Origin: an uncultured delta proteobacterium
Lineage (GTDB): Bacteria > Desulfobacterota > RBG-13-43-22
Assembly: GCA_963790475.1 (NCBI GenBank)
Contig: CAWBOS010000010.1
Span: 1,568,001-1,632,000, forward strand
DNA: 64,000 nucleotides
Direction of reading: 5' to 3'
The position numbers and the translations under genes are program-made. The notes beneath the pieces are model-generated. The model ran no database searches. It saw nothing but the letters and a program-made list of their open reading frames with translations, and was not told the origin of the DNA. Each line of letters opens with the position of its first letter. Positions within the stretch are counted from its first letter, which is position 1. This document shows positions 31,980-54,322 of this stretch, piece after piece.

Positions 31980-32104
31980 GACTCGTAAAAAGTCGTCAAG
32001 GCCCGCTCTCGTCATTCCGGGCTTGACCCGGAATCCAGGAATTTCAACCTGTTCTGGACCCCGGCTTTCGCCGGCGTGACGGCGGAGGAGATTTTTTACG
32101 AAAG
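31980..32104. repeat. GTCATTCCGG-type palindromic repeat, copy 1
   Basis: CGTAAAAAGTC...GTCATTCCGG..CCGGAATCCAG...CTGGACCCCGG..CCGGCGTGAC...TTTTTACG. Confidence 0.85.
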
Positions 32105-32120
32105 CATCATCAATAATAAA

Positions 32121-34859: not shown

Positions 34860-34890
34860 GAATTCTCCTAAGCGCTGATAAGCGGTAACC

Positions 34891-36395: not shown

Positions 36396-36437
36396 GGTCT
36401 CGATAACCGCCCGGTGGGTTTAAAAAAAGGATTATCA

Positions 36438-37409: not shown

Positions 37410-37467
37410 ATCTTAAAGCCTGATCATCAACAGGATGCACTCTCACCAAAAACGAAACCAACGGGTC

Positions 37468-37989
37468 TCAGATACAGTTTTGAGATAATTTCACTTGAGC
37501 AGCAATGAGCTCCTTCAGCACATTCATCAACCCGCCCTTTTCTATGATATGTAACATTTCTGTCGTGTAGAGTTGTCCCTGGAGTTCCTTGGTTCGAGTA
37601 AGATTGCGAATCTTAGCCGTCCTGAGATCCAGTTCCAGATCATCTCCCTCTTCAAAGGCGTTATGAATCCCCTGGCAGGCAATATTCGGAAAGGCAATGG
37701 CAATGGAGTTCCGCAAGTATATGCGTCCGAATGACTCGGCGATGACAGCCGCCAGACCCAATTCTTTTAAGTTCTCCGGGGCATTTTCCCGGCTCGACCC
37801 GCATCCCCAGTTACGACCGGCGACGATGATGTCACCGGGTCTTACCTGATCTGAAAACCCCTCTCGATTATGAAGGATAACCTTTTTCCGTTGCTCCCAG
37901 GGCAGACCGATAGAGTTCCAGGGGGCCATGACATCCGTGTCCACATCATGATCGAATTTCCAGACCTTGCCCCTAATAATCCAATCCAT
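37468..37989 (-). CDS. LeuD/HacB/DmdB-like hydratase small subunit
   Basis: DVDTD, G.NWGCGSSRE.A, IAESFGRIY.RN. Confidence 0.9.
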   Translation of the reverse strand: MDWIIRGKVWKFDHDVDTDVMAPWNSIGLPWEQRKKVILHNREGFSDQVRPGDIIVAGRNWGCGSSRENAPENLKELGLAAVIAESFGRIYLRNSIAIAFPNIACQGIHNAFEEGDDLELDLRTAKIRNLTRTKELQGQLYTTEMLHIIEKGGLMNVLKELIAAQVKLSQNCI

Positions 37990-38056
37990 AAAAACCCTCT
38001 TGCTGTTGTATTATAAATAATAGAGGTAATAAAACGAGCCCCATTCATTAATGGGA

Positions 38057-38203
38057 AACTCGTAAAAACTTGCCGAAATCAACATTAAGTCATTCCGGTC
38101 CCGCATCAAGTGCGGGATAGACTCCAGCCGGAATCCAGTGTCTTGAATTAGTAAAAACTTCTGGACCCCGGCTTTCGCCGGGGTGACGATTTTTACGAAG
38201 TCC
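38057..38203. repeat. GTCATTCCGG-type palindromic repeat, copy 2, with nested hairpin
   Basis: Same architecture as copy 1, plus TCCCGCATCAAGTGCGGGA insert. Confidence 0.85.
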
Positions 38204-38206
38204 TCA

Positions 38207-39502: not shown

Positions 39503-39529
39503 AGGACGCCCTCCCCTTCTACTGAATTT

Positions 39530-39803
39530 CGCACCGGTTTATCCTTTCAAAATTCGAATACTTTTTTTAGACAGGATTTACCGGATTCCCCGGATTTTTG
39601 TGCCTTTCGACCTGTCTGCAAGCTAGCACGCAGACAAGCGGGGGGAAGAAAGGCACAAACTGAATCGTTCTCTGGACAGAAGCCTGAACTACCGCCAGAA
39701 GCGGATCGAAGTTGCTCAGGGTCCTCAGGAACCTGAGCAAAAGGCATGTAAATCCTGTTAATCCTGTCAGGTAAAGATTTTTCCCATAAGACAAAGCGTC
39801 GCA
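39530..39803 (-). mobile_element. ACAGGATT-armed MITE-like element, copy 1
   Basis: Inverted homolog of 59472-59710; contains extra CTGTCTGC...GCAGACA palindrome. Confidence 0.8.
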
Positions 39804-39830
39804 TAATTTCTTTTTTCATGGATCCCAACA

Positions 39831-40760
39831 TTAAGGTCGATAACCAACGGTCTCCCGGTATTTGCGTTGGACCTCTTCATCAGGCAGAAACAATTCTTCA
39901 TATTTTTTGATTTCCGGAAATCCGATAAATTGGTGAAAATTGCGAATCGGATGGTCCTTCAGTCCCCGGCCGAATTCCCTTAAAAATTCCGTGCCGCCGG
40001 ATTGAAGTCCGTGCATAAAATCCCACATGGCCCTGGCCGCGGCCACAAAAGCGCCTCCGGCGATCTCGACCATAGCGACGCCCAGGGCCTTGAGATCCGG
40101 CATAGGCAGCATAGGAGAAACGCCGGTCATATTGTATAAAATAGGGGCCCGGATTTCTTTGACGCTGCGTTCCAAATCTTCCACACTGGTCAGGCCATCA
40201 GGAAAGATCACATCCGCCCCGGCATCCCGATAGGCCCGACCTCGCCGGATCACCTCTTCCATACTTCCCCCTAACGCTCCCCGGGCATCGGTGCGGGCAA
40301 TCAGGACAAAATCAGGGTCAAGTTGACGGCGCACCTTATCAGCCGCTTTATATTTCCCAACGGCTTCTTCGATGGGAATCAATTGTTTCCCGGCTACGTA
40401 GCCACAGCGTTTCGGGGCGACCTGATCCTCCAGGTGGATGCCAGCTACACCCGCCTTGATGAATTCCTCCGTGGTGCGCATGACATTGATTGCGTTCCCA
40501 TATCCGGTGTCTGCATCACTGAAAACCGGGATATTCACCGCGCCGGCGATATTACGAGCGACACCTACCACTTCAGACATTGTCGTCAATCCCACATCGG
40601 GTTTTCCAATCAGAGAGGCCGAGACGCCATACCCGCTGATGGCCATCAACTTGAAACCCGCCTGTTCAATAATTTTAGCCGATAGGGCGTCATAAGCTGC
40701 GGGAGCGATGAGCAGTTCCTGGCCTGCTAATAATTCTCGAAATCTATGGCTTTGCTTCAT
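39831..40760 (-). CDS. isocitrate lyase/PEP mutase family C-C lyase (PrpB/Dml-like)
   Basis: YDALSAK, DADTGYG, EDQ..PKRCGY, IARTDA. Confidence 0.9.
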   Translation of the reverse strand: MKQSHRFRELLAGQELLIAPAAYDALSAKIIEQAGFKLMAISGYGVSASLIGKPDVGLTTMSEVVGVARNIAGAVNIPVFSDADTGYGNAINVMRTTEEFIKAGVAGIHLEDQVAPKRCGYVAGKQLIPIEEAVGKYKAADKVRRQLDPDFVLIARTDARGALGGSMEEVIRRGRAYRDAGADVIFPDGLTSVEDLERSVKEIRAPILYNMTGVSPMLPMPDLKALGVAMVEIAGGAFVAAARAMWDFMHGLQSGGTEFLREFGRGLKDHPIRNFHQFIGFPEIKKYEELFLPDEEVQRKYRETVGYRP

Positions 40761-40777
40761 GCCGGGGCCTTTCCTTA

Positions 40778-41965
40778 TTATATAATCTTCTCCTGCCGTA
40801 ACTGGTCCATATCTTCCTTCGAGTAACCCAAAAGCTGAGATAGAACCTCTTCCGTATTTTCCCCCATAACCGGAGGATAGGTGTATTTTGTTCTCAATTC
40901 CGATGGTGTCCCCGACATTTTGACGGGGTTCCCGGTTTGTTTGATCCGCCCGCCCGAACCGTTTTCAATAGTGGCCACCATGTCTGTGGCTGCTACCTGG
41001 GGATCGGCCAGGGCCTTGTCCAGGGTATTCACCGGCCCACAGGGCACATCGGCCTCGATGAGTATCCTCATCCACTCCTCGGTCCCTTTGGTGAGAAAAA
41101 TTTCCTGAAGGACTGAATTCCTCTTCCTTTTATTTTCAAGAGTGGATGGTCCGGTAAAGAGGGGCTCCTTAAGCAGGTCTTCCTGGCCCATGGCCTTAAA
41201 CAAACGGGGGTATTTGTCTCCCACGGCGGCAATGGTGATGTAGCCGTCCGCAGTCTGGAAGGCCTGATAAACCGGGAGAACGCGGTGCCCGGATCCTACC
41301 GGTCCCGGCACTTCACCGGAAGCGAAATAAATGCTGGCCTCATAAGCGAGCATGGCCAATGTGGCCTCAAAAAGGGAAGTCTCCACTTTTTGCCCTACTC
41401 CGGTGCGTTCCCGGGCATAAAGGGCGGCCAGGATACCATGAGCGGCAAACATTCCGGCACCCAGATCACTGACGGCGATTCCCGCCCTGACCGGGGGCCG
41501 GCCTTCCTCTCCGGTAATACTCATGGAGCCGGTGATGGCCTGAATGATCACGTCGTATGCCGGCCGGTCCCGATAGGGGCCGCTGGAGCCGAAGCCACTG
41601 ATCGAGCAACAGATAATCCGGGGGTTGATCTTCTGGAGGGTTTCATAATCCATTTTGAGCCTCTCCAGGACGCCGGGCCTGAAATTGTCAAAGACGACGT
41701 CCGATACCTTTACCAGATCATAGAAGATCTCCCTTCCCTTTTCCGTTCGGGTGTCCAGGGTGATGCTCTTCTTGCTGCGGTTGATGCTCATATTGTAGGC
41801 ATCCTGCCCTCTATAGGCAGTCGGTCCGCTGAACCCTCTATTAGCGGCCACGGCCTCTATCTTGATAATCTCCGCCCCCAGATCTCCCAAAATCATGGCA
41901 CCAAAGGGGCCGGCTAAGGCACGGGTTAAATCGAGAATTCTTACATTGGCTAATGCCGTTTCCAT
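40778..41965 (-). CDS. CaiB/BaiF family III CoA transferase
   Basis: LDLTRALAGP, LGAEIIKIE, NRSKKS, NFRPG, ISGFG.SGP...RPAYD. Confidence 0.93.
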   Translation of the reverse strand: METALANVRILDLTRALAGPFGAMILGDLGAEIIKIEAVAANRGFSGPTAYRGQDAYNMSINRSKKSITLDTRTEKGREIFYDLVKVSDVVFDNFRPGVLERLKMDYETLQKINPRIICCSISGFGSSGPYRDRPAYDVIIQAITGSMSITGEEGRPPVRAGIAVSDLGAGMFAAHGILAALYARERTGVGQKVETSLFEATLAMLAYEASIYFASGEVPGPVGSGHRVLPVYQAFQTADGYITIAAVGDKYPRLFKAMGQEDLLKEPLFTGPSTLENKRKRNSVLQEIFLTKGTEEWMRILIEADVPCGPVNTLDKALADPQVAATDMVATIENGSGGRIKQTGNPVKMSGTPSELRTKYTYPPVMGENTEEVLSQLLGYSKEDMDQLRQEKII

Positions 41966-42007
41966 TCCATCATTTCCTTTCTATTTTTCATTTGAGAATA
42001 AAACTCT

Positions 42008-42086
42008 TTGTATCTGTTTAGCTTTTTGAAATCCAAAATACTTTTTAATCCTGTCAGATATTTTCTTATAATGCTAAAGCGTCACT
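42008..42086 (-). mobile_element. internally collapsed copy of the ACAGGATT-armed element
   Basis: Both outer flanks of 39530-39803 joined through a single AATCCTGTCAG. Confidence 0.6.
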
Positions 42087-42118
42087 TTTATCTATTTTGA
42101 AGTCTCATCTTTTAAATC

Positions 42119-43462
42119 CTACAGGGACTCTATGAAATCTTTCATACTCTTCCTGTCTTCGAGGATGAGGATGGCCTTCATCACTTCTTCGGACTGCTTC
42201 CGGCCTAAGACAGGAACACATAAATCCATGAATTTGGCTTGCACTTTTTTCCTTTTCGTTTCCAGCTCGGGGATTTCATTCATGATGTCATTAAAACCCT
42301 GAAGCCTTTTGCCTGAAAGAGTCTCAACCTCCACCTTGGCCGCTAAGCCCAAGATGCTCGAATCCGGCACGGCCACAATGGATATCTTTTCCATCAAAGA
42401 CTTTATCTGAGGGTCATTGACCTTTTCATCCGTAAAGGCCTGCATGCCCGTGTCTCCTCTTAAAAGGGCATTGGCCACACAATAATAAATACTAAACTTT
42501 CCTTCCAGACCGGTTTTCGGCGTCTTTTTTCCGGCAATATTAATGGCCGTCTGGGTGGTGTGGATGATTATGGATTTAATATCCGGAACAGTTAAATGGT
42601 CCTTGGTTACCATATTAAGCACCGCCTCGATAGCTGAATGAGTTCCGTGGCAGGAAGCATGATATTTCTGGGCCAATTTCTCCGTATCCCAGGTTTTCCC
42701 CAGCGAATCAACGGCTTTTGGGTTCACCCTGCCCTTTAAAAGCTGGAAAAATCCGTCCGGCCCTTCCAGGATATCTTCGGCGGAAGTAAATCCCTCACTC
42801 CCCAGCAAAACCGATTCCAATCCTACCTGGGAGGCCTTTCCGGCATGATAGGGCTTGCACATGGTGCCGAATACCCTCTTTAACCCGGCGGCCTGGGTCC
42901 CGGCAATGCCCAGGGCGTAAACCGTCTGTTGTTCATTTAAGCCCAACAATCGGGCACAGCCGGCGGCCGAAGCCAGACGACCGATGGTCGATGTTCCATG
43001 CCATCCAGCCCCATAATGTTCTAACCCGGCACAGGCCCCGATAACCGCCCCGGCTTTAAGGCCGATAATGTAAGCCGATAAGAATTCGAACCCGCTTTTC
43101 TCCTTCCATTCGGAAAGGGCCAGCAAGGCCGGAAACAAGGTCACCGAAGGATGGCCCTGGAACTGGGCCATGGTATCGTCATAATCCAGGGCATGAGACA
43201 TGGCCCCATTGATCAGGGCCGCCTGGCTGACATTGGTTCTCTGTCCATGGCCCAGGATAGTCGCCTGGGCATTGCCGCCCATGAGGCTGTTATAATGGAG
43301 GAGCTTCAGCACCAGAGGCTCATCCTTTCCGGCCATCAGGACGGCGAACCAGTCCAGAAAGGCGACCTTGGCCTGTTCATAGCATTCCCGAGGAATGGAC
43401 GAAAGGTCGGCTTGGGTGATCAACCGGGCGATGGTTCTGGTCAATCCTAAAGTTGTTTCCAT
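42119..43462 (-). CDS. MmgE/PrpD family protein
   Basis: NG..SHALDYDD, GHPS, GWH.TST, GTMCKP.HAG, KYHASCH.TH, KFS..Y. Confidence 0.93.
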   Translation of the reverse strand: METTLGLTRTIARLITQADLSSIPRECYEQAKVAFLDWFAVLMAGKDEPLVLKLLHYNSLMGGNAQATILGHGQRTNVSQAALINGAMSHALDYDDTMAQFQGHPSVTLFPALLALSEWKEKSGFEFLSAYIIGLKAGAVIGACAGLEHYGAGWHGTSTIGRLASAAGCARLLGLNEQQTVYALGIAGTQAAGLKRVFGTMCKPYHAGKASQVGLESVLLGSEGFTSAEDILEGPDGFFQLLKGRVNPKAVDSLGKTWDTEKLAQKYHASCHGTHSAIEAVLNMVTKDHLTVPDIKSIIIHTTQTAINIAGKKTPKTGLEGKFSIYYCVANALLRGDTGMQAFTDEKVNDPQIKSLMEKISIVAVPDSSILGLAAKVEVETLSGKRLQGFNDIMNEIPELETKRKKVQAKFMDLCVPVLGRKQSEEVMKAILILEDRKSMKDFIESL

Positions 43463-43499
43463 GGGTTTGCTCCTTCGATACGAGAAAAAAAATTTTTAG

Positions 43500-43545
43500 C
43501 CTAAGGTTTGAGGCCTTTTACCTTACGCCTTACGCCTAACGCCTA
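43500..43545. repeat. heptamer-repeat remnant
   Basis: CCTTACG-CCTTACG-CCTAACG-CC. Confidence 0.5.
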
Positions 43546-43547
43546 TT

Positions 43548-44345
43548 TTATTTCCCTTTGAATTCCGGTTTTCGTTTTTGCATAAAGGCCTTCTGGGCTT
43601 CCTTGAGATCTTCGCTGTTAAAGGCCTGGGCGATAATTCCATTCGCCTCCCGGCGGTCTTCATCTGACAGGGTGATCGATTTAGACAACAGGTTCAAGAT
43701 GCGTTTCGTCCCTTTGACCGATAAAGGGGCATTGCCGGCAATTTCGCGAGCCATTTCATAGGCAAAGCTCTCCACTTCCTGTCGGGGCAGGAGATAATCC
43801 ACCAGGCCCATTTCCTTGGCCCTTTGGGCCGGATAATAACGACCGGTAAAAAATATTTCTCTGGTATTGGAAATTCCGATCACCTGGATGAAGCGCGTCA
43901 GACCGGAAAGCTGGTATACTAAACCCAGTTTGGCCGGGGGCATCCCCATCCGGATATCGTCGGCGCCGATCCGCAGGTCACAGCAGACGGCCAATTCGCA
44001 GCCGGCACCGAAGGCATAGCCATTTAACAGGGCTATAACCGGATAGGGAAAGTTGATGATGCTCTTGAGGGCCAGGTCCAGGGGGTTTTGATCTCTTAAT
44101 TTTTCCCTGGTTCGGGGTGAGACCTCGGTCGGAATAGCGGCAATATCGTATCCTGAGGAAAAGGCCTGATCACCGATACCCCGGACAACCAACGCTCTTA
44201 TGGCATCCTCCCGGGCGAAATCCTCCAGGGTCTGATGAATCCTGATCAACAGATCCGGAGAAAGGGAATTGCGCTTTTCGGGACGATTGAAGATCATGGT
44301 TGCCACCCGGTCTTTTTTTTCAATTAATAAAATATCTGTGCTCAC
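43548..44345 (-). CDS. enoyl-CoA hydratase/isomerase (crotonase family)
   Basis: NRPEKRN, AFSSGYDI, PVIALLNGYAFGAGCELA..CDLR, MPPAKLG. Confidence 0.92.
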   Translation of the reverse strand: MSTDILLIEKKDRVATMIFNRPEKRNSLSPDLLIRIHQTLEDFAREDAIRALVVRGIGDQAFSSGYDIAAIPTEVSPRTREKLRDQNPLDLALKSIINFPYPVIALLNGYAFGAGCELAVCCDLRIGADDIRMGMPPAKLGLVYQLSGLTRFIQVIGISNTREIFFTGRYYPAQRAKEMGLVDYLLPRQEVESFAYEMAREIAGNAPLSVKGTKRILNLLSKSITLSDEDRREANGIIAQAFNSEDLKEAQKAFMQKRKPEFKGK

Positions 44346-44366
44346 TTGGGCACCTCCTTAGAAAAT

Positions 44367-44503
44367 AGGGTTCAAGGATTCGAGGTTTCAAGGATTCAAG
44401 GGTTTTAATTTCCATGCCGTTCACTTGAAACCTTGACCCCTTGGCCCCTTGAGTCCTTTTTATGCTTTTTCTTCTCTAAACCTTAGACCTTGAACCTTAT
44501 ACC
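44367..44503. repeat. palindromic element with TCAAGG/CCTTGA tandem arms, plus heptamers
   Basis: GGTTCAAGGATTCGAGGTTTCAAGG...CTTGAAACCTTGACCCCTTGGCCCCTTGA; same family as 60605-60720. Confidence 0.75.
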
Positions 44504-44507
44504 TTTT

Positions 44508-44912
44508 TTATCCGTTGATCCGGACATGTTTCTTGATAGACTCGACCACCTGATTAATACTGGTTCCGGAAGTAAAAATTTCTTTTACCCCTAATTCCTT
44601 TAAGGCCGGGATATCCTCATCAGGAATCAACCCGCCTACCAGCAGGACCACATCATCGGCCCCCTGGGCCTTTAACCCCTCGGCCACTCGGCGGGTCAGG
44701 GCCAGGTGGGCCCCGGAGAGGATGGAAAGCCCTACTACGTCCACATCCTCCTGGATGGCTGCCCGGACAATGGAATCGGTGGTCTGTCGCAGCCCGGAAT
44801 AGATCACTTCAAAACCGGCGTCGCGCAAAGAATAGGCGATTACTTTGGCCCCTCGGTCGTGGCCATCCAATCCTGGCTTGGCCACCAGGACTCTGATTTT
44901 CTTTTCGGTCAT
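44508..44912 (-). CDS. cobalamin-binding small subunit of acyl-CoA mutase
   Basis: [12 protein letters not shown] (DxHxxG), [14 protein letters not shown]. Confidence 0.95.
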
Positions 44913-44940
44913 CGTTGTTCTCCTTCAATCGTAATAGTTC

Positions 44941-45231
44941 AGCCACCAAGTCACTAAGCAACAAAGACCTGCGGGTCTGCAGGCAATAATTCTCTTGATC
45001 CCATTTTTAATGATAGGTTATCGGAATATCGACTTGCCTTTGGTATTTCAATTCTCGCTTGGATAGTTCATGACAAAAACAGACCTCATAGACCCTCTCA
45101 AGCAAACCCGGTCCTAATGTTTTATGTACTGTATAGGCAGCGTCCACAATTTTTTCAGCAATAAATTCTTCTCTTTCTGATAAGGGTTTAAACATCATAT
45201 CCATTCTTTGCGCCTTCGTGTCTTAGTGGCT
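44941..45231 (-). mobile_element. inverted-repeat-flanked GxxExxY cassette, internally deleted
   Basis: 27-bp imperfect IRs AGCCACCAAGTCACTAAGCAACAAAGA / TCTTTGCGCCTTCGTGTCTTAGTGGCT. Confidence 0.7.
44980..45204 (-). pseudogene. GxxExxY protein remnant
   Basis: VHKTLGPGLLERVYE...IPITY joined out of frame to C-terminal IKNGIKRII. Confidence 0.85.
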
Positions 45232-45241
45232 GAGGGTACCT

Positions 45242-47062
45242 TCAATCAAAAATAGGGTCACATTCAATCAAACCCACCGGAATACCGGTCACACGTTCAA
45301 TATCTTTATAGACTCGGCCGCTCAAATCCCTTCCCCATCCGCTCATATGGAAAGGAGAGGATGGAATGACCACCAGATCAGGCGACACCAGGCCCTCCCT
45401 TAAAAAATCTTTTACAGCGAAGATAAAATCTTCGACCATTAATAAATCACCCATAAAAATATTTCCCCCCAGGCACCGGTTGGGGGGAACACGCAGATGG
45501 AGCTTAATCTCGGCCGGAAAAGGGGTTTCTCTGATCCTTTTTTCCAGCGTGGGCCTAACCAGGGTGGAGGTTAGAATGAGGATCTCCCGGGCCTGTACCT
45601 TTAGAATCAGGTTTCTTAATCGTCCTGTCCAATCCAAGGGAATCCCGGAGGATGGAAAAACGCACCCGGCGTAGGGAACTATTTTAGGATCAAAAGGATA
45701 GGCAAAGTTGTTTAATTCCAGGGACAGATCGTCCGGCCCGTCCGGTCGGGCAACGGTCACCGAGACCCTTTCCAACAGGCTGCTCTGGACCAATCCCAGG
45801 AGGGAAAGGGCTTGGGGCCGGGTTTTGATCGGAAGGCCGTTGATAGCATTCAATCGATCGCCCATTCTCAGACCGGCTCCGGCTGCCGGAGAATTCTTGA
45901 TCACCCCGATCAGCCGAGGGGTGTCTACAGCCTCCGGGTCGAGATATTCTTCAAACAGGCCAGGCCGGATGATCAAAGGACAATCGGTCAGGGATCGAAG
46001 ATGTTGGATCTCGTCCTTCACTCGATTCCAGACCTCTTCCCGATCAAAAAGGGTCTCCTTGGAAAACAGCCCTGAGTACCCCGGCAAACTAATTTGAATA
46101 AAGGCCGGGTTGAATTGGGCCGAAAAGGCCACGGTATGGACCAGGTCCTCCACCATTTCTTCAACGGAAGGAAAAGGCCAGGGGACAATGACCACCGAAT
46201 AAGGGATGAGCGCCGATTGGAGGGCCGCCGGAGCACTTAAAGCCGTTTCCGGGTGAAGGTCTCTCATCAGCCAGCGTCGTCGGCTGGCAGAACTGCTGTT
46301 CAAAGAGATATCGACAAACAAAGGCCGGAATTGCGCCAGGGCGGTTATGATCGCCGGGGTGAGTTGCGCGCCGTTAGTCGGGATGCGCAGGACCTCAGCG
46401 GTTTTTTTACGAAGGGCGGCCAGGATCTCCAGGATATGGGGATGGGTCAGCATCTCACAGGGACTACCCACGTCCGGGAAAAAACCCATCTTAGATCCGG
46501 GCACATAACAGGTGATGCGGGCCAGAATTTCCTGAAATTCTTCCTCGGCACTGCCGGGGTTTTCTTGAAAGGCCGGGGGGCTGCCGAGGTTATAACAAAA
46601 AAGGCACCTGAGATTGCAGCGGGTGGCAGCCTGGGCCAGGATGTCGGAGGCCCCGCCTCCTGGTCTCAGCCATCGGGCTGGTTTTCTTAAACGAAAACCG
46701 TCAATCTGAACTGGCTCATTATGGAACTCAAATTCGACTACCGACAAGAGCGATTCTATTAATTTTCGGATGTAGGTCAGGCGTGGCTCATAGATATCCA
46801 GACGATTATCGGACCGGCGGAAATCGCAGGTTTCATCAATAAAAAGTGGATGAACCAAATCGGGTCCGCCAAGAGACCGGTATCCATCGATGCGGACCTC
46901 TTCCCCTTTCCAGGTGGGAGTTAGCAGGTCCAGGAGGGCGCGAAGGTGCCGGCCCGGCAGGTCAATCAGGTTCAACCGGGCCGCATACGAGTTGTCATCA
47001 ATGGGGTATCGGAAGAGATATTCTTTGTCTTCGTCGGGCGTCCGGCCTCGATTTAATTCCAT
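45242..47062 (-). CDS. radical SAM protein with PDZ and DUF512-like domains
   Basis: CNLRCLFC, TNG..LT, ISLNS, GV..NSPA..AGL..GD.L..ING (PDZ), N..LGGNI..GDLL...D. Confidence 0.85.
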   Translation of the reverse strand: MELNRGRTPDEDKEYLFRYPIDDNSYAARLNLIDLPGRHLRALLDLLTPTWKGEEVRIDGYRSLGGPDLVHPLFIDETCDFRRSDNRLDIYEPRLTYIRKLIESLLSVVEFEFHNEPVQIDGFRLRKPARWLRPGGGASDILAQAATRCNLRCLFCYNLGSPPAFQENPGSAEEEFQEILARITCYVPGSKMGFFPDVGSPCEMLTHPHILEILAALRKKTAEVLRIPTNGAQLTPAIITALAQFRPLFVDISLNSSSASRRRWLMRDLHPETALSAPAALQSALIPYSVVIVPWPFPSVEEMVEDLVHTVAFSAQFNPAFIQISLPGYSGLFSKETLFDREEVWNRVKDEIQHLRSLTDCPLIIRPGLFEEYLDPEAVDTPRLIGVIKNSPAAGAGLRMGDRLNAINGLPIKTRPQALSLLGLVQSSLLERVSVTVARPDGPDDLSLELNNFAYPFDPKIVPYAGCVFPSSGIPLDWTGRLRNLILKVQAREILILTSTLVRPTLEKRIRETPFPAEIKLHLRVPPNRCLGGNIFMGDLLMVEDFIFAVKDFLREGLVSPDLVVIPSSPFHMSGWGRDLSGRVYKDIERVTGIPVGLIECDPIFD

Positions 47063-47072
47063 CTTGAAATCC

Positions 47073-48818
47073 TTAAAATATGGAGGGGGGATCATATTCT
47101 CCGAAAACATCTCTGAATACGTCACAGACCTCTTGCAAAGAAACATAAGCCTTGGCGCAGGCGATCAGATGAGGCACCAGGTTCATATCTTTCTGCCCCG
47201 CCTGTTCTTTTAATTCAGCCAACAGCTTTTGCACCTCCTGGTTGTTCCGGTTCTTTTTAACCTCCTTCAAGTTGGCAATCTGCCTTTCTTCGGCCCGGGC
47301 ACGGCGGTCGGGATCATAGGGGTGCGGGACCAGGCGGGTGGTCTGCACTTCGAGTTCATGTTCGCCGGTAAAACAGTTCACCCCCACCACCAGAGTCTCT
47401 CCGCTGGCTATTTTTTTCTGGTGTTCATAGGCGCTTCGCGTTACTTCCCGCTGCACGTAGCCTTGCTCGATGGCCGTCACGATACCGCCCATTTTATCCA
47501 ATTTTTCCAGCTCGGCCCAGGCCTCTTTTTCAATCGCATCGGTAAGGGATTCGATACAATAGGAACCGGCAAAGGGATCTTCAACTTCCAGCAGTTTGGC
47601 TTCACAGGTCAGGATGCGGCTGACGTCCTGGGATAATTGCTGGGCCTCCCTGCTCCAACCCAATCCAAGGGGTTCATCGTAAGGAGGGAAAGCCGAGGGA
47701 GGTCCTCCGGACATGGCCCCGGCCACCGCCCCGAGAACGGCCCGAGTCAGGTTATTGAGGGGACGTTGTTTGGTGGTACTGGAGGGACCGATGTGGGCGG
47801 TCATATTCATTCTAAGCAGCATGCTTCGGGGGTTCTTGGCTCCAAAGCGTTCCTTGAGGAGGCGGGCATACATGCGCCGGGAAGCCCGTTGAAAGGCGAT
47901 TTCCTGCAGGAACTCCATACTGCCGCCCATGGCATTAAAGGTAAAACGAGGGGCAAAGACATCCACGTCCAAACCGGCATTAATCCCTTCTTGCAGATAG
48001 GCAGAGGCGATGGCCATACTATAGGCCAGATCCTGTGTACGCGAGGCCCCTGCCTCCCGGATATGATACCCTCCCATGCTGGTGATATTCATACGGGGCA
48101 TATATTGGTTGGCAAAAACCAGGATATCTCTAAAGAGTCGCATGGCCGGCTTGGGGGGAAAGATATAGGCCCCGCGGGCGATATATTCCTTCAGAATATC
48201 ATTCTGAGGGGTGGCCTGTAATTTTTCCGGGGAAATGCCCCGGTTTTCAGCCAAAGCGGCGTACATGGCGATTAAATAAATGGCCGGACCATTGATGGTA
48301 AAATTAGAGGCGATGCGGTCCAGATCGAGCTCTCCCTGATACGGTTCATAAATGATTTCCATGTCACGGAGGGTGTCTATGGCCACTCCGACTTTGCCCA
48401 CTTCACCGGCCATTAGAGGGTTATCCGAGTCATACCCGCACTGGGTTACAAGATCCATAGCCAAGTTTGGGCCTTGCCTACCTCCCCGTGAAATATTCTG
48501 TTTATAATAATCCCTCGTGTCCTCTGGCGTTCCATATCCGGAATAGCCGGAGGCGCGGGTCAAACCGGAACCTGACGGGGCCCTGGCGGCCATCTTGGCG
48601 GTACCGGCTCTGGGATCAAAAGGATAAACGCTCGCCGTAAACGGATATTCTCCCGGAAAGCTCACTTGGGTCAGGAAATCAAAGTCCGGAGTATCCAGGG
48701 GGGTATAAAAACGGCTGGGGGCCTCTTTCAAATAAGGAAAACGCTCTAAGGCTTTCTTTACCGTTTTTTCCTGCCAAACCTGCCTTCTTTGACGTATCTT
48801 TTCATACTGGTCGCTCAT
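47073..48818 (-). CDS. divergent B12-dependent acyl-CoA mutase large subunit
   Basis: FPGEYPFT, DL.TQ.GYDSD, GEVGKVGVAIDT..DM, QNDILKEYIARG, GYHIREAGA, DP.AGSY..ESLT, VGVN.F. Confidence 0.9.
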   Translation of the reverse strand: MSDQYEKIRQRRQVWQEKTVKKALERFPYLKEAPSRFYTPLDTPDFDFLTQVSFPGEYPFTASVYPFDPRAGTAKMAARAPSGSGLTRASGYSGYGTPEDTRDYYKQNISRGGRQGPNLAMDLVTQCGYDSDNPLMAGEVGKVGVAIDTLRDMEIIYEPYQGELDLDRIASNFTINGPAIYLIAMYAALAENRGISPEKLQATPQNDILKEYIARGAYIFPPKPAMRLFRDILVFANQYMPRMNITSMGGYHIREAGASRTQDLAYSMAIASAYLQEGINAGLDVDVFAPRFTFNAMGGSMEFLQEIAFQRASRRMYARLLKERFGAKNPRSMLLRMNMTAHIGPSSTTKQRPLNNLTRAVLGAVAGAMSGGPPSAFPPYDEPLGLGWSREAQQLSQDVSRILTCEAKLLEVEDPFAGSYCIESLTDAIEKEAWAELEKLDKMGGIVTAIEQGYVQREVTRSAYEHQKKIASGETLVVGVNCFTGEHELEVQTTRLVPHPYDPDRRARAEERQIANLKEVKKNRNNQEVQKLLAELKEQAGQKDMNLVPHLIACAKAYVSLQEVCDVFRDVFGEYDPPSIF

Positions 48819-48854
48819 GGCCTTCCCTCCAAATTAAAATACTTGAACTGCAGT

Positions 48855-48975
48855 TTAGGTATACGGTGTAAGGTTTAAGGTATAAGGTATAAGGTTCAGG
48901 TTCAGGTTCAAAGTTCAAAGTTCAAAGTTTAAGATTCAAGATCTTTACCTTATACCTCATACCTTGTACCATGCC
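48855..48975. repeat. heptamer-armed palindrome
   Basis: AGGTATA/AGGTTCA/AAGTTCA tandem units facing TACCTTA/TACCTCA units. Confidence 0.75.
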
Positions 48976-48978
48976 GTC

Positions 48979-49716
48979 TTATGCATTGCCCCTTACTAAT
49001 TCGGCAACCCCTTTATAGGCATCTCCCGGGAAAAAAGTGATCGCCATCTCTAAGGCCCTACCGAACCTCGAAAAATAAACGCGTTTGATAACCAGAAGCG
49101 GATGTCCTTTTTTGACCTTCAGGATGGAGGCCAAATTTTTATCAGTCACCGAGGCGTAGGTGATCTGCCGGCTTCGCTTTACCGTCTCCAGGGATTCTTT
49201 CTCGACTCTCTCGATAAAAAGCGGGCGATCCGGATCGGTTATCTTTATGTTTTCCCCTATTTCTTCGGGGACATAGGCCTGAAAAAAGGCCTGGCGTTCA
49301 TTAATCAGATGCCGTAGTCCTTCGAAGAGATAAACTTTTTCCCCTGAGTTCAGCATCATATCCTGAATTATCTGGGGAGAAGGGTTGATCAATTTTTTCG
49401 AATGAAGTTTTAAAGTAGTCTGGACGCCGAGATCAAAAAGATCATCGACTGTTCCATAGAGCTTAAACTGGAAGTTGTTGTTTTTACGAAAAGAGACGAA
49501 GGTACCCCGCCCCTGTTCCCGGCGAATAAGGTTGTCACTTTCAAGAGACAAGAGGGCCTGTCTAACGGTTATTCGGCTGACCCCGAACTCCTGACACAAT
49601 TCTTTTTCAGTAGGAACGGCCTGATCGGACTTGAGTTTGCCGGAAAGGATTCCTTTTCGGAGGACCTTTTCCAGTTGATGGTACAGAGGAATGGGGGTTT
49701 TTTTTAATTTTATCAC
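48979..49716 (-). CDS. GntR (HutC/UTRA) family regulator
   Basis: PLYHQL, PTEKEL..EFGVSRITVRQAL, R.QGRGTFV; UTRA-like C-terminus. Confidence 0.92.
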   Translation of the reverse strand: MIKLKKTPIPLYHQLEKVLRKGILSGKLKSDQAVPTEKELCQEFGVSRITVRQALLSLESDNLIRREQGRGTFVSFRKNNNFQFKLYGTVDDLFDLGVQTTLKLHSKKLINPSPQIIQDMMLNSGEKVYLFEGLRHLINERQAFFQAYVPEEIGENIKITDPDRPLFIERVEKESLETVKRSRQITYASVTDKNLASILKVKKGHPLLVIKRVYFSRFGRALEMAITFFPGDAYKGVAELVRGNA

Positions 49717-49801
49717 AACCTCTTTCCTTTGGGGTGACGATGGCGGGTAAACCCGCTACCTATGGGAAAGGTTCTTGGCCCTCTTAATTCCGGTGGAAGA
49801 A

Positions 49802-49830
49802 AGGTTATAATGTCATAACAAATATGTCAA
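49802..49830 (-). promoter_or_regulatory. operon promoter with overlapping GntR-type operator
   Basis: Minus strand TTGACA-17-TAACCT; palindrome GTTAT-N6-ATAAC at 49804-49819. Confidence 0.6.
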
Positions 49831-50241
49831 TTAATATTTACACTGTTTCGTAATGAATCTTTGTTAAACCTCATTAATTTAAAAGACGCCTCGGCCCTAA
49901 GAGGCCGTTGGGGTCCATACCTCTTCTACGCTGTTAATCTGCGGCCTGATTAGGACTCCATTTCAAGATTTCCTTTTTTTCCCTGTTCTGGTGAGGCCTC
50001 GGTGTTTATGACTGGGGGAAAAACGGGAAAGAGGGACCTTATATCCACATCGATACCCGGGGATTTAAGGCCCGCTGGTGACGATATTCAAAAAAAGGGA
50101 AATAATTAGTGATAAGGGTGTTGACAGATTGCCCATGATTCTGTAATCTCAATCAATTCGTTAATTTCCTGGCCATTGCAAATTGGCACTGAATTATTGT
50201 TCAAAACGTTTCTATAGTTGTCTGTTAAGGAGTAACGCGCA

Positions 50242-51225
50242 ATGTCGATCCGAATCCTGGGAACAGGAAGCTACTTGCCCCCCCGGGTCCTTCACAACCG
50301 GGACCTCGAAATAATGATGGACACCACGGATGAATGGATTTCCCAGCGAACCGGTATTCACGAAAGACGTATGGCCGATCCGGAAATTGCCGCTTCCGAC
50401 TTGGCCCTGGAGGCATCCAGGTCAGCCCTGGAAATGGCAGGCAAGAAGGTCGAGGATATTGAACTCATCATCATGGCCACCATCACCCCGGATACCCATT
50501 GTCCGGCCGGCGCCAATTGGCTTCAGGCCAAACTGGATGCCCCCCAGGCAGTGACTTTTGACGTAACGGCGGCCTGCTCCGGTTTCATCTTTGCCCTGAA
50601 CGTGGCCGAACAATATATCAAAGCCGGGACCTACCAAAATATCCTGGTAGTCGCCTCGGAAATTATGACCAGGACTTTAAACTGGAAAGATCGTTCCACG
50701 GCCATCCTCTGGGGAGACGGGGCCGGGGCTGTTTTTCTTTCCGGAAATGGGGACAATCCCCAAATCCTTTCCACCCACATCCATACTGACGGGGCCAATG
50801 GAACCAATTTATTGATGCCCGGAGGGGGTTCCAAGACGACGCCCATCTCTCATGAGAGTGTGGATAAGGACCTTCACACCCTCAAATTGATCGAGGCCAG
50901 CGCTTCGGTTCGGGTGGCGGTCAAGCACTTTTCCGAGGCCTGTCTGGAGGCTGTTGAGGCCAACGGATTTTCCATCAAGGATGTTGATTGGGTCATCCCC
51001 CATCAAGCCAATTTGCGTATGATACAATCTTTGGCCAAACGGCTGGACCTTCCCATGGATAAATTTTTCATGACCATCCATAAGTACGGCAACATCTCCT
51101 CGGCTTCCGTTGCCATTGCTTTGGATGAGGCGGTTCGTAGCGGTGCCATCCAAAAGGGGCACCTGGTTTTGCTGACAGCCTTTGGCGGAGGCTTGACCTG
51201 GGGCAGTGCCCTCATAAGGTGGTGA
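50242..51225 (+). CDS. fabH: 3-oxoacyl-ACP synthase III
   Basis: GTGSYLP, WI..RTGI.ERR, AACSGF, HQAN.R, GNISSAS, FGGGLTWG. Confidence 0.93.
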   Translation: MSIRILGTGSYLPPRVLHNRDLEIMMDTTDEWISQRTGIHERRMADPEIAASDLALEASRSALEMAGKKVEDIELIIMATITPDTHCPAGANWLQAKLDAPQAVTFDVTAACSGFIFALNVAEQYIKAGTYQNILVVASEIMTRTLNWKDRSTAILWGDGAGAVFLSGNGDNPQILSTHIHTDGANGTNLLMPGGGSKTTPISHESVDKDLHTLKLIEASASVRVAVKHFSEACLEAVEANGFSIKDVDWVIPHQANLRMIQSLAKRLDLPMDKFFMTIHKYGNISSASVAIALDEAVRSGAIQKGHLVLLTAFGGGLTWGSALIRW

Positions 51226-51513: not shown

Positions 51514-54322
51514 ATGAATAAAAATAAAATAAAAGCCAAAATAAAAGCCATAAAATCATCCAAGCCCAGGAAAAATAAAAAATATGTCTATTTCTTCGGA
51601 AAAGGCAAGGCGGACGGAAATGCCGACATGAAAAACCTGTTGGGCGGCAAAGGGGCCAATCTGGCGGAGATGACCAACCTGGGGGTAACCGTTCCGGCCG
51701 GATTCACCATCACCACCGAAGTCTGCACCTATTACTACCAAAACAAACAGACCTATCCTCTGGAAATGAACCGACAGATGGAGGCCGCCCTGGCCAGGGT
51801 CGAAAATATTATGGGCCGAAAATACGGCGACCCCGCGGACCCTCTTCTTTTATCCGTCCGCTCCGGGGCCAGAAGATCCATGCCGGGTATGATGGAAACC
51901 GTTTTGAATATCGGGCTGACGACCAAGACCATCCCCGGACTGATTAAAAGGACCAATAACGAACGTTTTGTCTATGATGCCTATCGCCGCCTGTTGATGA
52001 TGTATGCCGATGTGGTCATGGAAAAGGCCGCCGGTATCGAACCGGCCGAAGGGGAAGGGATCCGGCAAAAATTAGAACAGGCTATGGACCTGGTGAAAGA
52101 GAAGAAAGGCTACCATCAGGATACCGACCTGACCGCAGCCGACCTTAAAAGTCTGTGTGAAAATTTTAAGACCATCATCAAGGACACCCTGAAAAAAGAA
52201 TTTCCTGATGATCCTCAACAACAACTTCTGGGAGGAATCGGGGCGGTCTTTCATTCCTGGATGGGCAAACGGGCGGTTTCTTACCGTAAGATCGAAGGGA
52301 TTCCGGAAGATTGGGGGACAGCGGTCAACGTCCAGGCTATGGTCTTCGGCAACACCGGGGATACCTCGGCTACTGGGGTGGCCTTTACCCGGAACCCGGC
52401 CACCGGCGAAAATGTATTCTACGGTGAATGGCTGCCTAATGCCCAGGGCGAGGATGTGGTGGCCGGCATTCGAACCCCCAACCCGGTCAACGAGGCGGGG
52501 AAGACCTCGGATACCCGGCATTTGTCTTCCCTGGAAGAAATGATGCCCGACCTGTACCGACAATTATTCAAAATCCAGAAGAGATTGGAAAAACATTACA
52601 CCGATATGCAGGATATCGAGTTCACCATCGAGGATGGTAAACTCTGGATGCTTCAAACCCGTACCGGGAAACGAAACGGCCAGGCGGCCATCAGGATGGC
52701 CGTGGAAATGGCCGAGTCCCGGTTGATCAGCAAGGAAACCGCCTTACTCCGGGTCAATCCCGATCAGATCGATGAGCTCCTGCACCCCAGCGTGGATCCG
52801 GAGGCCGGGAAAAAGGCCGTCGAATTAGTCAAGGGACTGCCGGCCGGTCCGGGCGGGGCCTTCGGTCAAGTCGTCTTTACCGCCGATGATGCCGATCTCT
52901 GGAACAAACAAGGGAAAATGGTAATCCTGGTCCGTAATGAAACCTCTCCTGAAGATGTCCATGGCATGCATGCCGCCCAGGCCATCCTGACCGCTAAAGG
53001 AGGTATGACCAGTCATGCGGCCCTGGTGGCTCGGGGTTGGGGAAAATGCTGTGTGGTGGGGGCCAATGCCCTGGACATCGATGCCCATAATAAAATAATC
53101 CGGGTCAAAGGCCATGAACTTCGGGAAGGAGATTGGATCACCATGGACGGCACTCGGGGCCGTGTCTTTGAAGGCCAGCTCAAATTATTGCCGGCCGATC
53201 CGGCCAATAATCCCTGGTATCTGAAAATGATGAAATGGGCCGACCAAACCCGGAAATTAAAAATCAGGACCAATGCCGACCGGCCCGAAGATGCGAAAAT
53301 AGCCCGGTCCTTCGGGGCCGAGGGCATCGGCCTTACCCGGACGGAACATATGTTTTTCGAGGCCGACCGGATTCGGTCGGTACGGGAGATGATCCTTTCC
53401 GATACCCTGGAGGGTAGACAAAAAGCCCTGGCCAAACTGTTACCCACACAAAAGGCAGACTTCATCGGCATCTTTAAAGCCATGGATGGGCTTCCGGTGA
53501 CCATCCGCCTTCTGGACCCTCCCTTGCATGAATTCTTACCCAAGACCACTGAGGAGACTTCAGGAGCTTTCCGCGGAAATGAAGGTGTCCTTTACCCAAT
53601 TGAGAGCTAAAAACGAGTCCCTTCATGAATTCAATCCGATGCTGGGCCACCGGGGCTGCCGGCTGGGTATCACCTTCCCGGAAATTTATGAAATGCAGGT
53701 CCAGGCCATTATGGAGGCTGCCTGTGAATTGACCCAAAAAAAAGTCAAGGTTATTCCGGAAATCATGATCCCATTGGTCGGGCACGTCAACGAACTGGAA
53801 TCCATGCGCAAGCTGACCATCCGAATCGCAGAGGCAGTCCAGAAAGAAACCAAGGTCAAGGTGAACTATCTGGTAGGGACCATGATCGAGCTTCCCCGGG
53901 CCTGCATCACTTCCGATGAAATCGCCACCCAGGCCGACTTCTATTCCTTCGGCACCAACGACCTGACCCAGACCGTGTATGGTCTTTCCCGGGATGATGC
54001 CGGCGGTTTCCTGCCCTTTTACCAGGAACAACGAATCCTCCCGGACGATCCCTTTATCACTATTGATGTTGATGGGGTCGGGGCCTTTATGAAAATAGCC
54101 GTGGAAAAAGGACGGAAGGTCAAAAAGAATCTGAAGATCGGTATCTGCGGGGAACACGGCGGAGAGCCGCGATCAGTGGAATTCTGCCATTCCCTCAATC
54201 TGGATTATGTGAGTTGTTCTCCCTTCCGGGTGCCCATCGCCCGGCTGTCTGCGGCCCAGGCCGCCATCAAAGAGAAACCGGGGAAGAAGAAAGAAGAAGT
54301 GAAGAATGCCCGGAGAGGATAA
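51514..54322 (+). pseudogene. ppdK: pyruvate phosphate dikinase, frameshifted near 53557
   Basis: GGKGANLAEM, GGMTSHAA.VARG, RLLDPPLHEF | EFNPMLGHRGCRL, FGTNDLTQ, GICGEHGG in two overlapping frames. Confidence 0.93.

Follow-up and report, generated by a model that had tools for sequence, protein, structure and literature searches.

A very probable class-2 cobalamin-dependent radical SAM enzyme encoded with a distinct clade of split acyl-CoA mutases

Why should the gene of a radical S-adenosylmethionine (SAM) enzyme stand between the two subunit genes of an acyl-coenzyme A (acyl-CoA) mutase? The question was raised by a 64,000-nucleotide stretch of DNA from an uncultured delta proteobacterium (GenBank assembly GCA_963790475.1, contig CAWBOS010000010.1, positions 1,568,001 to 1,632,000 of the forward strand), which is called the window in the following and from whose first letter positions are counted. 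An earlier note on this DNA had named the gene product a DUF512-type radical SAM enzyme and had proposed that it could be a dedicated maturase of the mutase, a cobalamin repair or loading factor, or a substrate methylase. The analysis reported here indicated that the enzyme very probably belongs to class 2 of the cobalamin-dependent radical SAM enzymes and that its gene accompanies a distinct clade of mutases across four phyla. Several readings of its function were weighed, among which methylation of the mutase is tentatively preferred.

The radical SAM gene and the class of its product

The gene was located at 45242-47062 on the minus strand (coordinates including the stop codon) and encodes 606 residues. 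The stop codon of the mutase large-subunit gene (TAA, 47075-47073) is followed by 10 bases (47072-47063) and then by the ATG of the enzyme at 47062, and the likely ribosome-binding site, TAAGGA at 47075-47070, overlaps that stop. These coordinates bore out the earlier description of the start as lying 10 nucleotides past the mutase stop with an overlapping TAAGGA. The position of the gene between those of the two mutase subunits was likewise borne out, the gene of the B12-binding small subunit (44508-44912, minus strand) coming next. An alternative in-frame ATG lies at 47095, 11 codons upstream and inside the 3' end of the mutase gene, and the 617-residue forms annotated in some homologues begin at the equivalent start. 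That these 11 upstream residues look conserved follows from their overlap with the final codons of the mutase gene, which are themselves conserved. The choice of start matters little, because residues 1-21 are variable and were predicted with low confidence in the structural model. Since 242 relatives were obtained at E≤1e-3 among the scored candidates, and since the family profile reached 385 clusters at 50% identity in a library of 1.84 billion proteins (E≤1e-30), the open reading frame (ORF) is a real gene and not a chance one. Possible broken copies were also seen: the N-terminal part of the enzyme gene at one related locus (L028:199-570, plus strand) holds two in-frame stops, and one copy in another genome (G305:C257) holds an in-frame TAG.

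The protein was divided into the following parts, all encoded on the minus strand:

46658..46990, minus: N-terminal domain (residues about 25-135), which an alignment shows to consist of a unit of helix and beta-hairpin duplicated in tandem
45968..46642, minus: radical SAM core (PF04055), residues about 141-365, with invariant Cys
46595-46618, minus: CxxxCxxC cluster loop (C149, C153, C156), invariant in 26/26 aligned relatives
45698..45937, minus: PDZ domain (residues about 376-455), inserted after the radical SAM core and before the cobalamin domain
45245..45667, minus: C-terminal DUF512-like cobalamin-binding domain, residues about 466-606; the VIA alignments run to 602-606
45440-45469, minus: GGNIFMGDLL motif, residues 532-541

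The CxxxCxxC, the internal PDZ domain and the GGNI..GDLL motif reported in the earlier note were confirmed by Pfam scores and by invariant columns. The three cysteines form a cluster loop of the radical SAM type, and Radical_SAM (PF04055) matched residues 147-305 with 34.1 bits (cut-off 29.5). In addition, an invariant E203 in a GGE-like GSPxE, together with TNG and SLN stretches, is consistent with SAM cleavage as judged from the sequence. Within the C-terminal motif, G532, N534, G538, D539 and L540 were invariant among the aligned relatives. The PDZ domain was matched by PDZ_6 (PF17820) with 33.5 bits (cut-off 27) over residues 387-439 and by PF13180 with 28.1 bits. Moreover, the family profile matched the PDZ domains of RseP and DegP at 1e-14 to 1e-9, the best being that of an RseP homologue (1.1e-14). 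The loop L-I-G386-V, with its invariant G386, has the hydrophobic-Gly-hydrophobic pattern and is probably of the carboxylate-binding type.

The two copies of the N-terminal repeat are separated by an invariant YEPR. Modelled alone, with a mean predicted local distance difference test score (pLDDT) of 73.4, this domain reached a best structural Z of only 2.8 among 48,161 chains searched with VIA, and the ESM Atlas returned nothing (scores of 0.83 or less). Accordingly, no known fold was found for the modelled domain in these searches, which does not prove a new fold. Judged from the sequences of the relatives, the copy number of the repeat varies. For instance, P0111 (721 residues) carries a third copy; it had been considered as a fusion with the mutase, and this was rejected when its extra length proved to be that copy. 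Relatives of about 700-745 residues carry a longer N-terminus than the window protein, and many of those of about 520-545 residues match the family profile only from position 70-80 or so, the region of the second repeat. A search for fused forms of 1,062-3,030 residues found none, which is weak evidence. Within class 2, the order of N-terminal tandem repeat, radical SAM core, PDZ domain and cobalamin domain is a new architecture.

The class of the enzyme was assigned from several comparisons. The DUF512 model of Pfam (PF04459) matched neither the window protein nor its C-terminal 152 or 252 residues at E≤10, and 24 of the 26 relatives were matched at E≤0.1 (best 7.2e-7), so that the family lies at the margin of what this model recognises. 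A single-sequence phmmer search of the PDB sequences returned PDZ domains only and no Mmp10. With the family profile, the DUF512 protein of P. furiosus (9cg2) was matched at 8.7e-5 over the motif region, and Mmp10 was not among the 60 matches listed for this search. Furthermore, an AlphaFold2 model of the enzyme (mean pLDDT 79.7) gave 9cg2 (5.8e-9), 9cg1 (8.7e-9) and 7qbs, which is Mmp10 (1.4e-6), as its three best Foldseek matches. VIA-align placed the model on 9cg2 (pfDUF512) with Z 20.0 and 313 of 358 residues aligned, on 9cg1 (csDUF512) with Z 15.7 and 324 of 443 residues, and on 7qbs with Z 17.6 and 322 residues (model 136-606, 12% identity). These three alignments span model residues 135-606 and so cover both the radical SAM and the C-terminal domains. 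NifB, the PFL activase, SuiB and other radical SAM enzymes aligned over about 200 residues with Z 16-17, mostly in the core (133-365).

The residue under the cobalt was compared as well. In the solved structures this lower-axial residue is Leu366 of csDUF512, Leu286 of pfDUF512 and Leu322 of Mmp10, and a hydrophobic Leu at this place is taken as a mark of radical methylases (Wang et al. 2024). The invariant L540, the first Leu of GDLL, aligned with Leu366 of csDUF512, and the GLL of pfDUF512 aligned likewise with the family GDLL, both in a weak profile-to-PDB alignment (E 0.2-0.3). All four DUF512 proteins that have been tested bind cobalamin, form methylcobalamin together with S-adenosylhomocysteine (SAH), and make 5'-deoxyadenosine (Wang et al. 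2024).

On the basis of the PF04459 matches of the relatives, the profile match to 9cg2, Foldseek and VIA-align, the enzyme was assigned to class 2 of the cobalamin-dependent radical SAM enzymes, as this class is defined in a review (PMC13331322). By its modelled fold, it is very probably a DUF512/Mmp10-like member with an intact SAM-cleaving cluster motif. It is strongly supported by the model that the C-terminal domain shares its fold, its GGNI...GxLL motif and its lower-axial Leu with those DUF512 domains that have been solved and that bind cobalamin. The DUF512 label of the earlier note thus stood through the Pfam matches of the relatives and the predicted fold, but not through a direct Pfam match to the window protein, and the check by profile and structure prediction that the note had suggested came out in its favour. 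Its description of DUF512 as the domain of Mmp10 held for the shared fold only, as Pfam and InterPro do not assign Mmp10 to the DUF512 family (Wang et al. 2024).

Linkage to a clade of split acyl-CoA mutases

A scan of one genome per species gave 80 related loci, whose taxonomic groups were counted from the record titles:

31 loci: Deltaproteobacteria or Thermodesulfobacteriota-type metagenome-assembled genomes
31 loci: Chloroflexota, Dehalococcoidia
12 loci: Actinomycetota (including Ca. Geothermincola and Ca. Solincola)
3 loci: Bacillota, Peptococcaceae
3 loci: labelled only 'uncultured bacterium'

One locus (L062) was left out, as less than 40% of the enzyme was present, and the neighbouring genes of the other 79 were identified by tblastn with the proteins of the window operon and by simple ORF picking. 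Absences in these counts mean 'not found', because most of the genomes are metagenome-assembled and fragmented. The small-subunit gene was present in 55 of the 79 loci, the large-subunit gene in 54, a crotonase gene in 54, a CoA-transferase gene in 33, a PrpD gene in 32 and a MeaB gene in 12. At least one mutase gene was found in 63 loci; in 51 it lay within 400 nucleotides of the enzyme gene, always in the same direction (51/51). Among the 48 loci with at least 4 kilobases on both sides, a mutase gene was present in 41 and adjacent in 32. Three gene orders that include both subunits were seen across four phyla: large subunit, enzyme, small subunit (26 loci); enzyme, small subunit, large subunit (6 loci, and 4 more with a second large subunit at the end); and enzyme, large subunit, small subunit (5 loci). 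Ten further loci, on short contigs, had the enzyme followed by the small subunit. Added up, 46 of the 63 mutase-holding loci (26+10+6+4) have the small-subunit gene immediately after the enzyme gene.

The link to mutase genes noticed in the window therefore extends well beyond its genome. The earlier note knew of no radical SAM maturase for acyl-CoA mutases, and this held in that no paper was found, in the literature available without subscription, that ties acyl-CoA mutases to a DUF512 protein or to a radical SAM enzyme. Wang et al. (2024) do not use the word 'mutase' in their main text (0 occurrences), a count that leaves aside the supplements with their genome-neighbourhood data. The genomic partnership of enzyme and mutase, for which no description was found, is new and conserved across four phyla, and it suggests that the enzyme serves the mutase or its pathway.

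The distribution of the two genes among genomes was in agreement with this linkage. In the class of the window organism (21 genomes), the enzyme was present in 8. The same 8 genomes, and no others, had a mutase of at least 83% identity, encoded next to the enzyme, whereas the mutases of the remaining 13 were all of 44% identity or less. In an evenly drawn sample of 301 genomes of the phylum, with the mutase clade defined by E≤1e-140, the enzyme was found in 19 genomes, the clade in 27 and both in 16. The clade was thus present in 16/19 genomes with the enzyme and in 11/282 without it. The three genomes with the enzyme only (G196, G209 and G280) are assemblies of 130-610 contigs. Moreover, all five genomes whose enzyme gene is not near a mutase encode clade mutases elsewhere, at 53-65% identity. 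The enzyme accordingly implies the mutase (16/19) and not the reverse (16/27). No statistical claim is made, because related genomes are not independent. Taken together, we regard it as highly probable that the enzyme is coupled to this mutase clade or to its pathway.

The nearest solved structures to the large subunit were 2-hydroxyisobutyryl-CoA mutase (2.9e-99; 4r3u was aligned) and then human methylmalonyl-CoA mutase. Tyr92 and Arg215 of the large subunit align with a Tyr and an Arg of the human enzyme, positions which we take to be its carboxylate-binding residues. As both are kept, the substrate of the mutase is probably a carboxylated acyl-CoA. The window large subunit has a 13-residue insertion at residues 78-90 (48549-48587) and a TRAxxYSGYGT motif. 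All linked large subunits have an insertion of 13-25 residues and then TRAxxYSGYGTPEDTRDYY, where canonical mutases have a shorter stretch of the LWTMRQYAGF type. Furthermore, 23 positions were at least 93% conserved in the 56 linked large subunits and different in all five canonical ones, such as R352 (canonical Q) and D398 (canonical R). The window genome holds four large-subunit genes, which are the operon copy, two canonical ones and one 54%-identical paralogue; its single radical SAM enzyme copy lies beside the most divergent mutase. It is strongly supported that the enzyme is partnered by a distinct clade of acyl-CoA mutases that are split and served by MeaB, with a substrate that probably has a free carboxylate.

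Other members of the clade showed some variation. The 54%-identical paralogue (L104, G000:C12:134000-152000) has YSGYGT, a shorter insertion and Trp in place of Arg88, and is surrounded by Sir2, MaoC-like and hydrolase genes, with no radical SAM gene adjacent; no match to the B12-binding domain was obtained in its adjacent ORFs of 90 residues or more. In five loci (L041, L064, L070, L072 and L079), two tandem large-subunit paralogues, about 60% identical to that of the window, follow one small-subunit gene, an arrangement reminiscent of mutases in which a catalytic chain is paired with a non-catalytic one. In L070 and L072, a second mutase pair, of the canonical type, lies upstream. The orthologue in genome G020 is in two pieces (G020:C46:372385-374126) and is possibly a broken copy.

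Mutase-clade genomes that lack the enzyme were represented by nine clusters. The small subunit, the large subunit and PrpD were together in five of them (L112-L115 and L117); both subunits occurred without PrpD in L111 and L118, and L116 had no small subunit. MeaB was found in L112, L114, L115, L117 and L118. The ORFs of about 610-676 residues that were scanned, in L111, L112, L113 and L115, were sigma-54 regulators in all four loci. An adenosyltransferase was not found by tblastn in any of the nine clusters. The 834-residue ORFs of L113-L115 were all three glycyl radical enzymes, of the eliminase type and below every NCBIfam cut-off, and the ORFs of about 320 residues scanned in L112 and L115 were both glycyl-radical activases, beside PrpD (TIGR02494, 340.9 bits in L115). 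These loci, L113-L115 and L112, come from genomes G253, G279, G062 and G103. The 834-residue proteins had been considered as fumarate-adding (X-succinate) synthases, which was unsupported, as NCBIfam groups them with the eliminase type. The last cluster, L119 (G187:C216), resembles the window operon in having aconitase-like small and large subunits, PrpD, a CoA-transferase and the mutase large subunit; the small-subunit and radical SAM genes are not adjacent to it. It lies beside the tricarboxylate transporter genes TctC, TctA and TctB, which hint at a di- or tricarboxylic acid as the substrate of the pathway.

In the window itself, the enzyme gene belongs to a string of genes on the minus strand, listed here in the order of transcription:

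48979..49716, minus: GntR/UTRA regulator (Pfam and NCBIfam), upstream of the mutase large-subunit gene
47073..48818, minus: acyl-CoA mutase large subunit, 581 residues (PF01642, 457 bits)
45007..45204, minus: truncated remnant of PDDEXK_3 (PD-(D/E)XK), 65 residues (58.9 bits, profile positions 3-53 of 117)
44508..44912, minus: mutase small subunit, 134 residues (PF02310, 86.3 bits; TIGR00640, 167.7 bits)
43548-44345, minus: crotonase-family enzyme (NCBIfam and Pfam)
42119-43462, minus: MmgE/PrpD protein, in the co-directional string
40778-41965, minus: family III CoA-transferase, in the co-directional string
39831-40760, minus: lyase of the phosphoenolpyruvate (PEP)-mutase/isocitrate-lyase family, in the co-directional string
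38207-39502, minus: aconitase/isopropylmalate-isomerase-like large subunit, in the co-directional string
37468-37989, minus: aconitase/isopropylmalate-isomerase-like small subunit, in the co-directional string
36438-37409, minus: MeaB-type G-protein chaperone (GTPase; PF03308, 272 bits), at the end of the string and absent from the earlier note

The GntR/UTRA regulator was found at the same place in 11 of the 79 loci. The B12-binding DxHxxG motif of the small subunit is D16-G-H18-D-R-G21. For the crotonase-family enzyme, the best NCBIfam model was an enoyl-CoA hydratase subfamily (223 bits), followed by the methylmalonyl-CoA decarboxylase model with 200.8 bits, which is below its cut-off of 257. 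The PD-(D/E)XK remnant, the N-terminal half of such a protein, fills the 329 nucleotides that separate the radical SAM gene from that of the small subunit. Since only 16 nucleotides separate the two genes in the related locus L001, the remnant appears to be a decayed insertion and no part of the system. Rfam gave no match over 36000-50500 at E≤0.1, and so no cobalamin riboswitch was seen there.

Two observations were made around this string. Just downstream of MeaB, the minus strand (27945-35886) encodes an NMT1-like periplasmic binding protein paired with a large HAMP-PAS-HisKA_3 sensor kinase, twice in tandem, and these pairs may sense the substrate of the operon pathway. On the plus strand, a pyruvate phosphate dikinase (51514-54322) is split into the overlapping ORFs 51514-53610 (698 residues) and 53528-54322 (264 residues, with the rest of PEP-utilizers_C), which suggests a frameshift or an assembly error.

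Possible functions of the enzyme

By analogy with Mmp10, the enzyme may be a dedicated maturase that methylates the mutase, a reading that is put forward tentatively, as the preferred one but with less than even probability and with two rivals close to it. The wider statement that the mutase holoenzyme is the substrate, through either its protein or its cobalamin, covers both such readings jointly and is evenly balanced in our judgement. In the proposed mechanism, a first SAM would donate its methyl group to cob(I)alamin in the C-terminal domain, so that methylcobalamin and SAH are formed, and a second SAM would be cleaved at the [4Fe-4S] cluster to yield a 5'-deoxyadenosyl radical. By hydrogen abstraction at an sp3 carbon, this radical would turn a residue of the mutase into a radical, to which methylcobalamin would then pass its methyl group. 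The mutase would be bound through the PDZ domain and the N-terminal repeats, which might grip, for example, the hydrophobic tail at the C-terminus of the large subunit. The residue to be methylated would be found in an element specific to the clade, for instance in the insertion and the TRAxxYSGYGT stretch by the active-site Tyr.

Several points argue for this maturase reading. The one class-2 enzyme whose function is known has as its methylation substrate a protein encoded by adjoining genes, and the Mmp10 gene adjoins mcrB in most methanogens (Deobald et al. 2018, PMC5943407). The four tested DUF512 proteins perform the half-reactions of a methylase (Wang et al. 2024). Moreover, the gene is embedded among the subunit genes, and the partner clade has unique elements by the active-site Tyr. 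The other genes of the operon make up a module that is chemically complete: a mutase, MeaB, a crotonase-type decarboxylase and a CoA-transferase, the set of the E. coli sbm operon, need no further enzyme on the carbon path. The radical SAM gene is therefore the extra one.

A number of findings weigh against a maturase. We know of no modification of any acyl-CoA mutase. Four well-flanked Chloroflexota loci (L024, L026, L042 and L053) have no mutase gene; their order is carboxyltransferase, biotin carrier, OAD_beta (a set for a Na+-pumping acyl-CoA decarboxylase), one or two crotonases and then the enzyme. The Chloroflexota mutase sits elsewhere, in a separate cluster of PrpD, mutase and CoA-transferase. 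In L056, L067 and the loci of family f35, which belongs to the phylum of the window (L107-L109), the enzyme is near NMO-type (NMO/FabK-like) and crotonase genes, and the mutases of f35 are on other contigs. Crotonase genes are as frequent neighbours as mutase genes (54/79 loci). The well-flanked L071 has no metabolic context, its neighbours being RNase Y, YmdB, a PHP-domain protein and a nucleotidyltransferase; its genome holds three clade mutases elsewhere. As 11 of the 27 genomes with the mutase clade lack the enzyme, the modification cannot be essential. Furthermore, the evidence from gene order reflects only a small number of independent events, as an operon passes on as one unit, whether by descent or by transfer. 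As for the contact sites, Arg88 is 95% conserved, but it is shifted or missing in a YAGYGT subgroup. Most large subunits end in S/T-x-hydrophobic, and this tail was considered as a clade-specific PDZ ligand and rejected, since canonical mutases end similarly. A PDZ domain is also a frequent part of DUF512 proteins that have nothing to do with mutases, and that of csDUF512 partly completes the barrel (Wang et al. 2024).

The provision of adenosylcobalamin was also surveyed. In the window genome (G000), a PduO-type adenosyltransferase was not found, and a CobA-type gene lies directly upstream of a canonical mutase gene; G001-G005 have both CobA and PduO types each. In G003 and G004, the CobA and PduO genes are beside a canonical mutase (39-40% identical). 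The canonical mutases beside a CobA-type gene are at G000:C10:789253-791423, G003:C12:31019-33971 and G004:C67:12487-15287, and the insertion-bearing clade is not found in such a place. Neither a CobA- nor a PduO-type adenosyltransferase was found by tblastn in the 80 enzyme-holding loci. The enzyme was considered as a necessary replacement for a missing adenosyltransferase, which was rejected because all six genomes analysed encode one. In the Pfam scan, the enzyme matched only Radical_SAM and PDZ families and so showed no homology to PF02572, PF01923 or PF03308. When the full-length enzyme and the small subunit were predicted as a complex, the score was 0.00, which speaks neither for nor against an interaction. 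For the solved DUF512 proteins, crystals of pfDUF512 had 5'-deoxyadenosine above the cobalt and 44% adenosylcobalamin, and csDUF512 had 38% adenosylcobalamin after co-expression of btu uptake genes (Wang et al. 2024).

The frequency of crotonase genes and the loci without a mutase could be explained if the enzyme acted on a small molecule of the pathway, as a radical SAM methylase or another radical transformer of a carboxylated acyl-CoA or of a free di- or tricarboxylic acid, with the mutase and the crotonase-type enzyme handling its product or substrate. This possibility is doubtful but deserves attention. Of the cobalamin-dependent radical SAM enzymes that have been characterised, most have small-molecule substrates, the Chloroflexota keep the adjacency of crotonase and enzyme, with the decarboxylase set and no mutase in the four well-flanked loci, and in f35 the enzyme adjoins NMO/FabK-like and crotonase genes. 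The enzyme-less clusters L113-L115 carry another anaerobic radical enzyme, the 834-residue glycyl radical enzyme, so that radical chemistry on a small molecule may be something that the pathway requires; however, the eliminase type stands for a different chemistry. The set of mutase, MeaB, decarboxylase and CoA-transferase is also complete without a methylation, and no sensible catabolic route that needs a C-methylation could be written. In addition, the usual position directly 5' of the B12-binding subunit gene or between the subunits would be unusual for an unrelated step, and a PDZ domain with a probably intact carboxylate-binding loop and a variable repeat module look more like protein recognition.

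That same position upstream of the small-subunit gene (46 of the 63 mutase-holding loci) would suit an enzyme that serves the cobalamin of the mutase, in which SAM is the adenosyl donor and adenosylcobalamin is made or restored for the small subunit under the control of MeaB. The 5'-deoxyadenosyl radical would recombine with cob(II)alamin, or cob(I)alamin would attack C5' of SAM, and the enzyme would stand in for an adenosyltransferase independently of adenosine triphosphate (ATP). In the variant by radical recombination, which is just as unlikely as the service role as a whole, the cob(II)alamin would be in the DUF512 domain or come from inactivated mutase, and neither ATP nor a cob(I)alamin stage would be needed. 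We consider such a service unlikely. MeaB is encoded in the window operon and in 12 of the 79 loci, the adenosyltransferase that stands beside the canonical mutase genes of G000, G003 and G004 was not found by tblastn in the 80 loci, and, among the loci found, the family occurs only in strict-anaerobe lineages. However, CobA in G000 and both CobA and PduO in G001-G005 leave no adenosyltransferase gap to fill, 11 of the 27 genomes run the mutase clade without the enzyme, and we know of no precedent for a SAM-driven cobalamin service enzyme. In the solved class-2 enzymes, cobalamin is a buried cofactor and not cargo. The class-2 pocket can hold adenosylcobalamin (44% in pfDUF512 and 38% in csDUF512), but all four tested DUF512 proteins make methylcobalamin, and the lower-axial Leu is read as the mark of a radical methylase (Wang et al. 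2024). A role unrelated to the mutase pathway, such as other DUF512 proteins may have, with the enzyme gene merely travelling with the operons, is very improbable. It would fit L071 with its lack of metabolic context, and DUF512 proteins are generally not reported near mutases in the main text of Wang et al. (2024), where the word does not occur. It is at odds with the mutase gene in 63 of the 79 loci, the exact match of presence and absence in the 21 genomes of the class, the contrast of 16/19 with 11/282 genomes, and the three clade mutases in the very genome of L071.

Meaning and comparison with known systems

About 6,000 sequences of DUF512 proteins are on record (Wang et al. 2024). These cobalamin-binding radical SAM proteins, shown as such recently, have no known substrate apart from that of the related Mmp10, and a branch of at least 385 clusters here gains a strong, testable lead, namely an uncharacterised clade of acyl-CoA mutases. 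If the maturase reading is true, the post-translational C-methylation of an adenosylcobalamin enzyme would be new. If the enzyme instead serves the cobalamin, a new SAM-driven route of adenosylcobalamin loading or repair would join the two great cofactors of the 5'-deoxyadenosyl radical in one cycle, and a branch of the DUF512 family would have its first function. For an enzyme of the pathway, a C-methylation step inside anaerobic dicarboxylyl-CoA metabolism would be new. Moreover, a mutase subfamily with altered active-site residues was defined in subsurface and hydrocarbon-associated anaerobes.

Compared with known systems, the predicted fold of the enzyme resembles that of Mmp10 (7QBS), the radical SAM C-methylase of an Arg of McrA, in having a radical SAM core followed by a four-stranded Rossmann-like cobalamin domain. 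Mmp10 also has a Leu under the cobalt, the counterpart of L540, and its gene lies beside those of its substrate. However, Mmp10 is archaeal, acts on McrA and has neither a PDZ domain nor an N-terminal repeat domain. The enzyme is not Mmp10, with 12% identity, no match at the sequence level, bacterial hosts and no mcr context seen. The best structural matches, pfDUF512 (9CG2) and csDUF512 (9CG1), have the FFGGNI...GLL motif and the lower-axial Leu in common with the enzyme. The PDZ domain of csDUF512 is N-terminal, whereas that of the enzyme stands between the radical SAM and cobalamin domains. Unlike both, the enzyme has an extra N-terminal tandem-repeat domain of 140 residues and a radical SAM core that resembles the MoaA/NifB/SkfB type, and no mutase context is reported for the pair.

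MeaB and the CobA/PduO adenosyltransferases are, like the enzyme, encoded with mutase genes; they handle base-off cobalamin and serve the B12-binding domain. The adenosyltransferases use ATP, whereas the enzyme has SAM and an iron-sulfur cluster and no relation to them in sequence or fold. As for the operon as a whole, its mutase, MeaB/ArgK GTPase, crotonase-family enzyme and CoA-transferase match the parts of E. coli sbm (scpA-argK-scpB-scpC). In contrast to sbm, the mutase of the window operon is split and of another clade, and the CoA-transferase is of family III. Furthermore, PrpD-, lyase- and aconitase-like genes are added to the window operon, and a radical SAM gene, which sbm lacks, is embedded in it.

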